A stretch of 38,603 bases of DNA, taken from positions 1-38,603 of the forward strand of contig CAZZYE010000005.1 of the NCBI GenBank assembly GCA_964658145.1, in the 5' to 3' direction. Shown here one piece after another: positions 12,416-18,400 of the stretch. The notes under the pieces were generated by a model. It ran no database searches, was not told the DNA's origin, and saw only the letters and a list, made by a program, of their open reading frames with translations. Each line of letters starts with the position of its first letter. The stretch's first letter is position 1. Position numbers and translations under genes: made by a program. Origin of the DNA: an uncultured Stigonema sp. Lineage in GTDB: Bacteria; Cyanobacteriota; Cyanobacteriia; Cyanobacteriales; Nostocaceae.

Positions 12416-15400
12416 AATCTTGCCTTAAGTCAAACTGTTGAACCCATTCGGCCCGTCCCACGTGATGGAAACCTAACCCTGTCCTTTCCCCAGCAACAAC
12501 TGTGGTTTTTAGACCAATTGGAAGAAGAAAGTGTTGCCTACAATGGTACAGGTGCTGTGCGCTTAGCTGGCTCTCTCGACGTAGTGGTTTTGCAGCAAGC
12601 TATTGTGGAAATCATTGGACGTCACGAGATATTACGCACCAACTTTAAGATGCTCGACGGATCACCTGTACAGGTGATTGCCCCCATTGCAACAGTGACT
12701 TTGCCAGTGATAGACTTGCAAGCATTGCCAGAACAAGAGCAATCCGCCGAAGTGCAACGCCTAGTCACCAAGGAGCAAGAGCAGCCCTTTGACCTGTCAA
12801 AAGATCCGTTAATGCGGGTGACTTTGCTTCAGTTGACCCAAGAGTCCCATATACTGCTGCTGACCATGCACCACATTGTCTCCGATGGCTGGTCAATCGG
12901 AATATTCATTCGAGAGTTTTCTACTCTCTATCAAGCTTTCTGTGCAGGAGTTCCATCCCCGTTGCCAGAGTTGTCCATACAGTATGCAGACTTCGCAGTT
13001 TGGCAGAGGCAGTGGCTGAGTGGGGAAGTGCTAGAAACTCAACTCAACTACTGGCAGCAACAGTTGGCAGGTGCACCACCACTGTTGGAACTTCCCACAG
13101 ACCGACTGCACCCCCCGATTCAGACCTTCCGAGGTGGCATTGAGCACTTTGAGATCAATCGAACCCTGACTCAGCAGTTGAAAAATTTAAGCCAACATTC
13201 AGGGGCAACTTTGTTTATGACAATGCTTGCAGCTTTTGTGACCTTACTTTACCGCTACAGTGGTCAGTCTGACATTGTTGTTGGCTCCCCAATTGCTAAC
13301 CGCAACCACCGTGAGATAGAGTCTCTCATTGGTCTTTTTGTAAATACCTTGGTGCTGCGTACTAACCTAGAAGGGAATCCCAGTTTTTTGGAGTTGTTAA
13401 ACAGAGTGCAGCAGGTAGCTCTAGAAGCTTACGCTCACCAGGATCTGCCCTTTGAGCAAGTGGTAGAAGCATTACAACCAGAACGTAATCTCAGTCATAG
13501 CCCCCTGTTCCAAGTGATGTTTGCGTTGCAGAATGCACCGATGGGGAACCAGGAACTGCCAGGTTTGACCATAAATCCCATAGAGATGGAGAGCATCACA
13601 GCCAAGTTTGATTTGACTGTGTCGATGGAGGAAACACAAGCGGGACTGACAGGAAAATGGGAATATAACAGGGATTTGTTTGATGCGGTCACAATTACTC
13701 GGATGGCAGGGCATTTTCAGACCTTGATCGAAGCCATTGTGGCTAATCCCCAGCAGCGCCTCTCGGACTTACCCTTGCTGACGGTAGCTGAGAAGCATCA
13801 GCTACTGGTGGAGTGGAACAACACCCAAGCAGATTATCCCCAAGACCAGTGTATCCATCAGTTATTTGAAGCCCAGGTGGAGCAGACACCTGATGCTGTG
13901 GCGGTGGTGTTTGAAGATCAACAACTGACCTACCGCCAGTTAAATTGCCGTGCCAATCGTGTGGCCCGACTGTTAATAGAACAAGGCGTTAGTCCTGGCA
14001 CTATTGTTACTTTGCTCGCTGAGCGTAGCATTAACTTTTTAACCGCAATGATAGCGGTATTCAAAACTGGTGGTGCTTACTTGCCACTAGATTCACATCA
14101 TCCAGATCAACGTCTCCACCAGGTGTTAGAGCAGAGTCAGACCCCTCTAGTTCTAGCGGCGATAAAATTTGAGCCTGTTCTCTCACAAGCACTAGCAAAT
14201 TCACCTGACAAAAAACGACCACAGATCTTGTTTATTGAAGAACTATTGCAGCAACAAAGGTCTGAGGAAAACCTGCCTGTTTGCTGTACGCCAATGCACC
14301 TAGCTTATGTGATCTATACCTCTGGCTCGACAGGCGTGCCAAAGGGGGCAATGGTCGAACATAGGGGGATGCTGAATCATTTATATGCAAAAATTTTGAC
14401 TTTAAAGCTAACGGATGCTGATAAAATTGCACAAACTGCACGCCAGAGTTTTGACATCTCAGTCTGGCAATTTCTAGCAGCACTGCTTGTCGGTGGGCAG
14501 GTTCATATTTTCAATGATGAGGTCACTGGTAACCCACCACAACTGCTTGAGCAGTTGGAGCGTCAGGGAGTTTCAATCCTAGAGATTGTGCCATCGCTGT
14601 TGCGGATAACGCTTGAGGAAATAGGGCTTCGTGGGGCAAATCGCCCTCATCTATCCAAGTTGCGCTGGTTGCTCCTTACTGGTGAAGCATTACCACCACA
14701 GCTATGTAGTCAGTGGCTAGAGTACTACCCGACTGTACCAATGTTGAATGCCTATGGTCCTACCGAATGCTCCGATGATGTCACCCATTACCCCATCTAC
14801 CAGCCATTAGCAGCAAGAGTGCTTAACATACCGATTGGTCTTTCGCTGACGAATATGCAGCTGTATGTGCTGGGGTTCCAGTTGCAACCTGTGCCGATTG
14901 GGGTACCTGGTGAACTATACATTGGTGGTATCGGGGTGGGTCGTGGCTATCTCAATCGTCCTGAATTGACTGCTGAAAAGTTCATTCCCAACCCTTTTAG
15001 TCAAGAAACAGGAACTCGTCTCTACAAAACCGGGGATCTGGGTCGATACTTGCCGGATGGAAACATTGAGTTCCTTGGTCGTGTTGATCACCAGGTAAAA
15101 ATACGAGGCTTCCGCATTGAGTTAGGTGAGATCGAGGCAGTGCTAAGCCAACACCTGTCTGTGCAGGATACAATCGTCTTGGCTCGCGAAGACATGCCAG
15201 AACACAAGCGTCTAGTGGCTTATGTGGTGCAAAATCCCCAGTACCCGTTCACTAATGAGCTGGTATCCCAATTACGCACATGGCTTACGGAGAAGTTACC
15301 TAATTATATGATACCCTCTGCCTTTGTGCAGATGGAAGCTCTGCCCCTAACTCACAATGGGAAGGTAGACCGCCAAGCACTTCCAGTTCCAGATTGGGAT

Positions 15401-18400
15401 CGTCTTGATTTGGATAATACCTTCATAGCTCCCAACACTCAGGTCGAGAAGACACTTGCAGGCATTTGGGCTGATCTCCTAGTCTTGGAACAGATAGGTA
15501 TTTATGATAACTTCTTTGAACTAGGCGGAAACTCCCTACTGGCAATCCAAGTCATTTCCCGGCTGCGCGAAGCATTTCAGGTGGAACTGCCCCTGCGCCG
15601 CTTGTTTGAATTCCCCACCGTGGCTGAACTCAGTAAGATCATTGAGGCAGTCTATCAGGCTGGAGAAATGGTGCACAAGCCAATCATTGAGCCAGTGACA
15701 CGAGACGGAAACCTCCCCCTGTCTTTTGCCCAAGCTAGACTCTGGTTTCTAGACAAACTTGAAAGAGGAAGTACCGCTTATAACATGCCCGCCGGTGTTC
15801 ATCTCATTGGTACTCTTCACCTAGTGGCCTTAGAGCAAAGTTTGACGCAAATCATTGGACGTCACGAGATATTACGCACCAACTTTAAGATGCTCGACGG
15901 ATCACCTGTACAGGTGATTGCCCCCATTGCAACAGTGACTTTGCCAGTGATAGACTTGCAAGCATTGCCAGAACAAGAGCAATCCGCCGAAGTGCAACGC
16001 CTAGTCACCAAGGAGCAAGAGCAGCCCTTTGACCTGTCAAAAGATCCGTTAATGCGGGTGACTTTGCTTCAGTTGACCCAAGAGTCCCATATACTGCTGC
16101 TGACCATGCACCACATTGTCTCCGATGGCTGGTCAATCGGAATATTCATTCGAGAGTTTTCTACTCTCTATCAAGCTTTCTGTGCAGGAGTTCCATCCCC
16201 GTTGCCAGAGTTGTCCATACAGTATGCAGACTTCGCAGTTTGGCAGAGGCAGTGGCTGAGTGGGGAAGTGCTAGAAACTCAACTCAACTACTGGCAGCAA
16301 CAGTTGGCAGGTGCACCACCACTGTTGGAACTTCCCACAGACCGACTGCACCCCCCGATTCAGACCTTCCGAGGTGGCATTGAGCACTTTGAGATCAATC
16401 GAACCCTGACTCAGCAGTTGAAAAATTTAAGCCAACATTCAGGGGCAACTTTGTTTATGACAATGCTTGCAGCTTTTGTGACCTTACTTTACCGCTACAG
16501 TGGTCAGTCTGACATTGTTGTTGGCTCCCCAATTGCTAACCGCAACCACCGTGAGATAGAGTCTCTCATTGGTCTTTTTGTAAATACCTTGGTGCTGCGT
16601 ACTAACCTAGAAGGGAATCCCAGTTTTTTGGAGTTGTTAAACAGAGTGCAGCAGGTAGCTCTAGAAGCTTACGCTCACCAGGATCTGCCCTTTGAGCAAG
16701 TGGTAGAAGCATTACAACCAGAACGTAATCTCAGTCATAGCCCCCTGTTCCAAGTGATGTTTGCGTTGCAGAATGCACCGATGGGGAACCAGGAACTGCC
16801 AGGTTTGACCATAAATCCCATAGAGATGGAGAGCATCACAGCCAAGTTTGATTTGACTGTGTCGATGGAGGAAACACAAGCGGGACTGACAGGAAAATGG
16901 GAATATAACAGGGATTTGTTTGATGCGGTCACAATTACTCGGATGGCAGGGCATTTTCAGACCTTGATCGAAGCCATTGTGGCTAATCCCCAGCAGCGCC
17001 TCTCGGACTTACCCTTGCTGACGGTAGCTGAGAAGCATCAGCTACTGGTGGAGTGGAACAACACCCAAGCAGATTATCCCCAAGACCAGTGTATCCATCA
17101 GTTATTTGAAGCCCAGGTGGAGCAGACACCTGATGCTGTGGCGGTGGTGTTTGAAGATCAACAACTGACCTACCGCCAGTTAAATTGCCGTGCCAATCAA
17201 GTAGCACATCACTTGCAATATCTGGGGATAGAACCAAATATGTTGGTGGGCATTTGTATGGATCGCTCCTTAGAGATGGTAGTGGGACTGCTGGGAATTC
17301 TCAAAACAGGTGGGGCTTATGTGCCTCTTGACCCAGATTATCCCCAACAGCGCTTAGCCTTTATACAAGAAAATGCTCAAGTCCAAGTGCTGTTGACACA
17401 ACAGCGACTGGTTGAGAGGCTACCTGAACATGAAGCTGTTGTAGTTTGTTTGGACACTGATTGGTATGATATCGCCCAACAGAGTGAGAACAACCAGGTC
17501 AGTAGTGTTACAGCTAACAACTTGGCTTACGTTATTTACACTTCCGGATCCACAGGTAAGCCTAAGGGAGTCATGGTCGCGCATGGTAATGTTGTCAACT
17601 TTTTTACAGGGATGGACAACAGCATCGGCTGTGAAACGCCAAGTACTTGGTTAGCAGTTACCAGCATCTCCTTTGATATTTCTGTCTTAGAGATACTCTG
17701 GACTCTAACACGAGGTTTTCAAGTTGTTGTTCAAGCCAATCCAGTTTGGGCTACTTATGATACCGAGCCTATCAACGAACTCATAGATAAAGAAATGGCA
17801 TTTAGCCTTTTCTATTTCGCCAGTGACGAGTTACAAGCAGGTGTAGATAAATATCAGTTACTGCTTGAGGGGGCTAAGTTTGCCGACCAACATGAGTTTA
17901 GTGCCATCTGGACTCCAGAACGCCACTTCCATGCCTTTGGTGGTCTTTACCCAAATCCGTCTGTTGTTAGTGCTGCAATTGCTATGATTACAGAGCGCAT
18001 TCAAATTCGAGCAGGCAGTGTTGTTTTACCCCTCCAGCACCCCGTACGAGTGGCGGAAGAATGGTCTGTAGTTGATAACCTTTCTCAGGGTAGAGTTGCT
18101 GTCTCTTTTGCTTCCGGATGGCACGCAGATGATTTTGTCTTAGCCCCAGAAAACTATTCAGATCGTTTCCAAATCATGTTTCGTGATATTGAAACTGTCC
18201 GCAAACTCTGGCGGGGAGAATCGATCAAATTCTCAGGAGGTAGCGCTAATGAAGTAGAGGTGAAGATTCATCCACAACCAATCCAGCCTGAACTGCCGAT
18301 TTGGATTACAGCTGCTGGTAGTCCAGAAACTTTTCGTAAGGCTGGTGAAATCGGTGCCAATGTACTTACCCATTTACTAGGTCAAAGTATCGAGGAACTG

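Follow-up and report, generated by a model that had tools for sequence, protein, structure and literature searches.

In a 38,603-nt stretch of DNA from an uncultured Stigonema sp. (hereafter the window; contig CAZZYE010000005.1 of assembly GCA_964658145.1), five co-directional nonribosomal peptide synthetase (NRPS) genes are followed by accessory genes, and the third NRPS gene carries two identical copies of a 1350-nt sequence, such that one and the same condensation (C) domain is encoded in two consecutive modules. From our point of view, a recent and non-reciprocal gene conversion between paralogous C domains is probably the best explanation for this repeat. In such a scenario, homology-guided conversion would have copied 1350 nt in register between neighbouring modules of the same gene, from just before motif C2 of the C domain to just after motif A1 of the adenylation (A) domain, either in one event or as the latest of several, and the two domains would have been about 70% identical beforehand. 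Both modules would now be the same in the catalytic C domain, in the C-A linker and in the A domain over its first ~65 residues, and each would retain its own A-domain core, thiolation (T) domain and substrate as well as its own upstream junction, namely a docking domain plus C1 region in one case and a T domain plus C1 region in the other. That conversion was at work in preference to other routes, that it took place recently and that the enzyme has continued to function is what we infer from the observations set out below.

In a direct string comparison of the window, positions 12609-13958 and 15849-17198 show 0 mismatches over 1350 nt, and the maximal exact match has exactly these coordinates, the bases at 12608/15848 and at 13959/17199 being different. 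The offset between the copies is constant at 3240 nt, i.e. 1080 codons, and thus corresponds to one module in a direct, in-register and in-frame arrangement. Within the 2605-aa protein the copies span residues 129-579 and 1209-1659, with E versus Q as the first codon. Each begins four codons upstream of motif C2 (RHEILRT), that is between C1 and C2, and ends directly after motif A1 (LTYRQLNCRAN), where the codons continue as RV.. in one copy and as QV.. in the other, so that all four junctions lie in canonical motif contexts with both copies in frame. Outside the repeat, 60-nt windows compared at the same offset agree at 32-40 of 60 positions on the left, and on the right at 20-38 of 60 and later at about 15 of 60, which is random; viewed base by base, both junctions are sharp and there is no gradient of identity. 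An exact match of 1350 nt cannot be of chance origin. The initial annotation, which had described a mismatch-free direct duplicate of a C domain, spaced exactly one module, with breakpoints just after the C1 region and in A1, is thus borne out, for the sequence as it stands, by the self-comparison of the window.

The surroundings of the repeat (R in the following) are of ordinary divergence. In the three other LCL-type C domains of the cluster, two of which are encoded by gene 4 and one by gene 5, the regions equivalent to R are 68.7-72.1% identical to it in nucleotides and 64.9-71.8% in amino acids, and among themselves these domains share 67-70% nt identity. The left flanks of the two copies (135 nt) are 59% identical, like any other pair of such flanks (56-73%), and the right flanks (210 nt), at 44% identity, fall into two separate A-domain lineages, with the first A domain of gene 3 grouping with the first A domain of gene 4 (69%) and the second A domain of gene 3 grouping with the second of gene 4 and that of gene 5 (65-68%). 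The earlier description of paralogue-level flanks and of clearly diverged other C domains therefore agrees with the measured values. Since the flanks and the remaining paralogues show ordinary divergence, the two C domains would have been ordinary ~70% paralogues until one of them was overwritten, and since the right flanks belong to different lineages, the A domains would not have been duplicated along with the C domain.

Gene conversion or concerted evolution is indicated both by the comparison among paralogues, in which the copies are 100% identical as against 67-72% nt for the other C domains of the cluster, and by the sharply delimited tract, with flanks of 59% and 44% and a constant in-frame offset of 3240 nt. 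We prefer conversion because a single in-register, non-reciprocal copy accounts for the identity, the sharp ends and the diverged flanks alike. The initial annotation had offered a very recent gene conversion or duplication; the former part stands as the most economical account, whereas a simple duplication does not. A tandem duplication of a whole C-A-T module was rejected, as identity stops at A1 and the A-T sequence to the right of the repeat is 44% identical and then random at the same offset. We also considered a mobile element or alternative coding within R and found nothing resembling a mobile element; the only other coding content consists of short antisense open reading frames of 65-84 aa that are mirrored in both copies.

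The domain encoded by R has a Pfam Condensation match, the HHxxxDG active-site motif (MHHIVSDGWS) and close similarity to solved C domains, and by similarity rather than by a subtype model it is probably of the LCL type. Its closest solved structures are ordinary C-A didomains, namely Txo2 (6p1j; E = 5e-158), Txo1, LgrA and TycC, and in the alignment R corresponds approximately to residues 53-502 of the 6p1j chain.

With regard to the age of the event, 0 differences at 1350 sites place the divergence of the copies below about 0.22% at 95% confidence (Poisson, 3/1350, our own arithmetic). A variant of a co-occurring strain (L003) differs from the window across positions 33177-35811 by 10 substitutions in 2622 aligned nt (0.38%) plus one 13-nt indel, and as such at least two strains of this population are present in the sampled environments. 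At 0.38%, a stretch of 1350 nt should contain about 5 differences and the probability of observing none is ~0.006, a rough figure of our own arithmetic since different regions are compared. Because the copies of R are more uniform than co-occurring strains, the conversion would be younger than the split from L003, or would have been renewed since. The direction of copying leaves no signal within the window, R being equidistant from the three other C domains (P4C1, P4C2 and P5C) and showing no mosaic when compared in 150-nt windows. The database protein closest to R (P0133, 71% across R) has an upstream flank that matches that of copy 2 at 38 of 53 residues (72%) and that of copy 1 at 31 of 53, which would weakly favour copy 2 as the native sequence and copy 1 as the one that was overwritten.

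Several observations weigh against a conversion. Homologous recombination is inefficient at ~70% identity, and the surviving paralogues share exact runs of only 14-29 nt; the idea that the breakpoints lie at long pre-existing patches of identity found no support, as these short runs are not concentrated at the tract ends, and the initiation of the event is thus left unexplained. Across 105 homologues that extend upstream, the mean identities of 53 are 25.9 with the copy 2 flank and 24.7 with the copy 1 flank, which makes the evidence for a direction weak, and control flanks score like the copy 2 flank, so that only the flank of copy 1 is shown to be atypical and that of copy 2 is simply more consensus-like. 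In addition, no orthologous cluster was found in the genomes of GTDB, the JGI metagenomes or a protein database, so that the state before conversion is unobserved, and the independent contigs that were found, which are 100% identical to the window and stem from several metagenome samples, reach only from 26908 to 37245 and leave the repeat uncovered. Lastly, the sister assemblies of this population, which are SPAdes-style, have a coverage of 3-5.5x. If the window itself was assembled from short reads, R would be one graph edge that was walked twice; the absence of mismatches would then be due in part to the assembly itself, which could have merged small real differences.

Taken further, this last point leads to the explanation that the repeat is an effect of assembly, in that C domains that are similar but not identical, or another number of [A-T + C] units, were merged into one edge by a de Bruijn assembler and the loop was walked once. 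The 1350-nt exact repeat is indeed longer than any short-read k-mer or insert size, the same population is seen as low-coverage SPAdes-style contigs (NODE_1448, coverage 5.5; NODE_14791, coverage 3.0), the contig on record for the tail proteins is 38,688 nt long and essentially the window, as would fit a metagenome-assembled contig, and neither the protein database nor the JGI metagenomes yielded independent sequence of the repeat region. However, the unique and unbranched segment between the copies (B) is directly preceded by the end of R and directly followed by its start, so that R would have to lie on both sides of B and the order flank-R-B-R-flank is forced. Merging could moreover hide only about 1-3% divergence and not the ~30% that separates the paralogues, and thus a near-identical repeat would be real in any case. 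Such assemblies also do not always erase differences, as the SPAdes contig of a Microcoleus sp. that is described below keeps 2 mismatches between its copies, and the same kind of repeat occurs on a 7.9-Mb contig of a metagenome-assembled genome (MAG). We therefore consider an assembly effect unlikely.

A gain of a module in two steps, namely a tandem C-A-T duplication followed by replacement of the A-T part of one copy from a different donor, would account for the spacing of exactly one module. It would also make use of A-core replacement, the commonest type of NRPS recombination (PMC8097286), and would fit the nearest relatives of the module with the inserted monooxygenase (MOx), which are single-module C-A(MOx)-T proteins of 1483 aa (L005) and 1501 aa (L006), such that the upstream diamino-acid module could be a later addition. 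This route, however, needs two recent events with breakpoints that leave no second-order trace, the inter-copy A-T segment shares no more than about 69-85% identity with its nearest paralogue (the first A domain of gene 4) and at most 72% with anything in the protein database, which points to an old acquisition as opposed to the very young identity of R, and a recent whole-module duplication would not leave C1 regions that are 59% identical. In our view it is somewhat more improbable than an assembly effect. One could finally speculate that the identity is actively maintained, be it that conversion recurs or that selection favours sameness, for instance because both C domains have to bind a common trans-acting partner. 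Concerted evolution can run on as a cycle (PMC4256081, Figure 4 legend), and the copies are more alike than co-occurring strains, but the window shows no obvious candidate for such a partner, homogenisation has not extended to the cluster's other three C domains, and identity at synonymous sites speaks for copying and not for selection at the protein level, so that we regard maintenance as very improbable. A single conversion, or the latest of several, remains our preferred account of the repeat.

The search for orthologues and independent sequence covered GTDB at one genome per species, the JGI metagenomes and a database of 5.8 billion proteins. A scan of the GTDB set with the MOx segment returned no orthologous cluster, the best relatives of this segment being 79% identical and belonging to clusters of different architecture in Tolypothrix carrinoi and Nostoc cf. 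edaphicum (L005 and L006). In the JGI metagenomes, 0 matches to the junction 34-mer were obtained, and relatives of the VOC-FkbH segment were at most 46% identical. In the protein database the inter-repeat A-T segment reached at most 72% and R at most 71% identity; exact look-ups of the proteins of genes 2, 3 and 4 (with ATG starts) returned nothing, and as the listed matches were all of about 1100 aa or less, much longer proteins are possibly not indexed and their absence is not evidence. Via one of the protein matches (P0003) we reached a related but shorter cluster on a JGI metagenome contig (L086; 3300053761, Ga0500145_0001338), in which an A domain that is 72% identical to the inter-repeat A-T segment is followed by C-A-T-TE (TE, thioesterase), an MFS transporter, an SbnA-like and an SbnB-like gene in the order of the tail of the window; this contig begins within the NRPS gene and does not reach the region equivalent to the repeat. 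At positions 37236-37262 the window contains a perfect, GC-rich intergenic hairpin (GTAGGGTGGGCA CTG? read as GTAGGGTGGGCAcTGCCCACCCTAC), and two independent contigs (L001 and L085) stop inside it, at 37245 and 37238. The hairpin probably represents a dispersed palindromic repeat at which short-read assemblies break.

Table 1. Coordinates of the repeat, of NRPS gene 3 and of related features in the window.
Feature	Position	Strand	Content
NRPS gene 2	8265..12227	+	DCL-type C, VOC/glyoxalase-like domain, FkbH domain, T; predicted to supply a glyceryl-type donor to copy 1
NRPS gene 3	12224..20041	+	2605 aa; both copies in one reading frame
NRPS gene 3 start	12224..12608	+	TubC_N-type docking domain, then the unconverted C1 part of the module 3 C domain, which shares 59% nt identity with the corresponding flank of copy 2
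Repeat copy 1 (R)	12609..13958	+	Module 3 C domain from four codons before C2 (RHEILRT), C3 (HHIVSDG), C5, C-A linker, start of A domain to the end of A1 (LTYRQLNCRAN)
Inter-copy unique segment (B)	13959..15848	+	1890 nt; A domain from just after A1 (code DIWELTADDK), T (FFELGGNSL), T-C linker, C1 region (SFAQARLW) of the second C domain
Repeat copy 2 (R)	15849..17198	+	Identical 1350 nt in the module 4 C domain and the start of the Gly/MOx A domain
Rest of module 4	17199..20041	+	Gly-type A domain (DILQMGMIWK) interrupted by a luciferase-like monooxygenase (residues about 1862-2174), then T
SbnA-like and SbnB-like genes	32628..34814	+	Putative 2,3-diaminopropionate synthesis; NCBIfam equivalog cut-offs exceeded

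The cluster as a whole extends from 1485 to 37056 and has the order FAAL-ACP-C-A(Ser)-T-E in gene 1 (FAAL, fatty-acyl-AMP ligase; ACP, acyl carrier protein; E, epimerisation domain), DCL-VOC-FkbH-T in gene 2 and then five modules for a diamino acid, Gly with the MOx insertion, a diamino acid, Val and Gly-TE. Gene 1 starts with the fatty-acyl-AMP-ligase-like domain and the ACP and ends in the epimerisation domain (HHLMVDGVSW, EGHGRE), and the domains of gene 3 follow each other as TubC_N docking domain, C, A (diamino-acid type), T, C, A (Gly, MOx-interrupted) and T. Downstream (3') of the NRPS genes lie an MFS transporter, the SbnA/SbnB-like genes for diaminopropionate (Dap) synthesis and a PvdQ-like Ntn acylase that scores 254.9 bits, under the equivalog cut-off of 950. 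The acylase suggests that the fatty acyl group may be removed following export. The whole cluster appears to be undescribed, with no close relative in the collections searched.

The A-domain specificity codes were extracted by hand from the A-domain segments with the GrsA-PheA numbering, and the codes were assigned to amino acids after the literature. The code of the gene 1 A domain is DVWHFSLIDK, which we take to be that of Ser, and the second A domain of gene 4 has DAFWLGGTFK, presumably for Val. The interrupted second A domain of gene 3 (DILQMGMIWK) and the A domain of gene 5 (DILQLGLVWK) are both taken to activate Gly. The first A domains of genes 3 and 4 carry the identical code DIWELTADDK, which we assume to stand for a small diamino acid, as its acidic pocket suggests. 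Since this pocket coincides with SbnA-like and SbnB-like genes that exceed their NCBIfam equivalog cut-offs (442.7 against 349.95 and 420.9 against 326.9, respectively), 2,3-diaminopropionate is likely to be the substrate of both domains and these genes its likely source. The FkbH domain of gene 2 matches TIGR01686 with 290.6 bits against a cut-off of 146.65 and marks a glyceryl-loading module. Under collinearity, copy 1 is thus predicted to join a glyceryl-type donor to a diamino acid, and copy 2 to join a chain that ends in a diamino acid to Gly. The donor and acceptor pairs that the initial annotation had assigned to the two copies are accordingly correct as a prediction, given the score of the upstream FkbH module and the Gly code of the second acceptor.

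Further features of these genes deserve mention. The luciferase-like monooxygenase (17741-18910; protein 3 residues about 1862-2174) lies inside the Gly-specific A domain of a mid-chain module, and more than 587 relatives of this insertion were found in the genome collection, spread over many phyla including Acidobacteriota, Chloroflexota, Verrucomicrobiota, Actinomycetota and cyanobacteria. In terminal modules, luciferase-like monooxygenase insertions hydroxylate the alpha-carbon of glycine (MtaG/MelG). Between the C and the FkbH domain of gene 2 (9660-10700; protein 2 residues 469-813) there is a VOC/glyoxalase-like domain (PF13669) together with ~230 residues that have no family match. NRPS genes 2 and 3 share a 4-nt overlap, and between NRPS genes 3 and 4 there is an AT-rich non-coding gap of 346 nt (20042-20386), the other junctions of the cluster being much shorter. 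This gap may hold an internal promoter or may mark a seam of cluster assembly.

If the conversion took place as proposed, the question arises what it would mean for the enzyme and the population. One could imagine that the converted enzyme is fully functional, that one C domain (C2 to C7) together with the C-A linker and the N-terminus of the A domain accepts two very different substrate pairs, and that the population carries alleles with an in-frame deletion or duplication of one module; we put this combination forward tentatively, as somewhat more likely to fail in one of its parts than to hold in all of them. Were it true, one module would pair an acyl-D-Ser-glyceryl (hydroxy-acid) donor with a diamino-acid acceptor and the next a peptidyl-diamino-acid donor with a Gly acceptor, which would be a clean natural demonstration of a context-independent, portable block with usable fusion points before C2 and after A1.

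In this context, not all consequences drawn in the initial annotation are equally secure. Its prediction that unequal crossing-over would delete or duplicate exactly one module in frame is sound and follows from the geometry of the repeat; a direct repeat of this kind predicts the easy loss or gain of one module and hence a simple route to peptide length variants. The hazard for short-read assembly is likewise real, follows from the same geometry and applies to this very contig, and short reads alone are not to be trusted across such repeats, here or in NRPS contigs generally. Low selectivity of the C domain and a functional recombination boundary, on the other hand, were claimed more firmly than the data allow. 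With zero substitutions between the copies there is no trace of selection, and an event of this kind has not visibly passed selection, so that both would be plausible and in line with PMC8097286 but presuppose a working enzyme. Should the enzyme with two copies prove active, it would provide a natural data point for the debate on C domains as gatekeepers of substrate identity and would point to two fusion sites, one before C2 and one after A1, that are not standardised in engineering schemes. As a natural experiment the repeat becomes useful only when its sequence and the function have been confirmed.

Recombination of this type has been described in several assembly-line systems. In cyanobacterial NRPS genes, intragenomic recombination is documented by Baunach et al. 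(2021), including the mcyB/mcyC modules of microcystin synthetase, and it is argued there that C domains are not stringent filters of selectivity (PMC8097286). As with mcyB/mcyC, sequence has here been transferred between modules of one and the same cluster in a cyanobacterial NRPS. However, in most of the events of that study the A core is exchanged and the native C domain and C-A linker are kept, whereas in the window the C domain, the linker and the A-domain N-terminus are homogenised, the tract being the complement of an A-core swap; of the two breakpoints, the right one after A1 fits the scheme of PMC8097286, and the left one between C1 and C2 is not highlighted there. The engineering schemes XU, XUC and XUT likewise define boundaries for the recombination of NRPS parts, with exchange sites in the C-A linker, in the linker between the lobes of the C domain and in the FFxxGGxS motif of the T domain, respectively (bioRxiv 10.1101/2022.12.02.518901 for XUT), but neither of the present breakpoints, four codons before C2 and directly after A1, lies at those fusion sites. 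GRINS-type repeats are thought to promote gene conversion in assembly-line genes and show intense nucleotide skew; R was not retained as a repeat of this type, as the GC skew across 12000-17400 ranges only from -0.11 to +0.10 in 300-nt windows.

As a baseline, we compared each of 85 fetched loci with itself (1.33 Mb in total, including 80 NRPS loci that stem from the scan with the MOx segment) and found two further near-identical direct repeats within NRPS genes that are spaced by one module. In a Blastocatellia MAG (L015; MFD04935.bin.1.50), positions 1306-3159 and 4802-6655 of a 7.9-Mb contig are 98.3% identical over 1854 nt from C1 to A3, after which the A cores differ. This repeat has the same C-to-early-A layout in consecutive modules, but it is not exact, and as its offset of 3496 nt cannot be divided by 3, the copies lie in different frames or genes. 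In Microcoleus sp. herbarium2 (L043), positions 4283-5913 and 7460-9090 are 99.9% identical over 1631 nt from A1 to A10, and unlike in the window it is the A domain and not the C domain that has been homogenised. Repeats spaced by one module are thus recurrent and natural, and the event is not unusual for NRPS genes (PMC4256081; L015, L043).

Gene conversion is further known to blur the duplication histories of NRPS genes (Booth et al., 2022; PMC9205934), and concerted evolution by internal recombination has been identified as a major mode of NRPS and polyketide synthase evolution, including the C domains of lipopeptide synthetases, with syringopeptin as the extreme case (Medema et al., 2014; PMC4256081). 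Overall, the repeat in the window is a new example of this known process, and as homogenised assembly-line domains are well documented, it leaves the current understanding unchanged. As in those systems, paralogous domains of one cluster have become identical in sequence and presumably interoperable. Unlike there, homogenisation in this Stigonema cluster concerns a single pair of C domains, within a sharp C2-to-A1 tract of zero divergence, with the other three C domains untouched.

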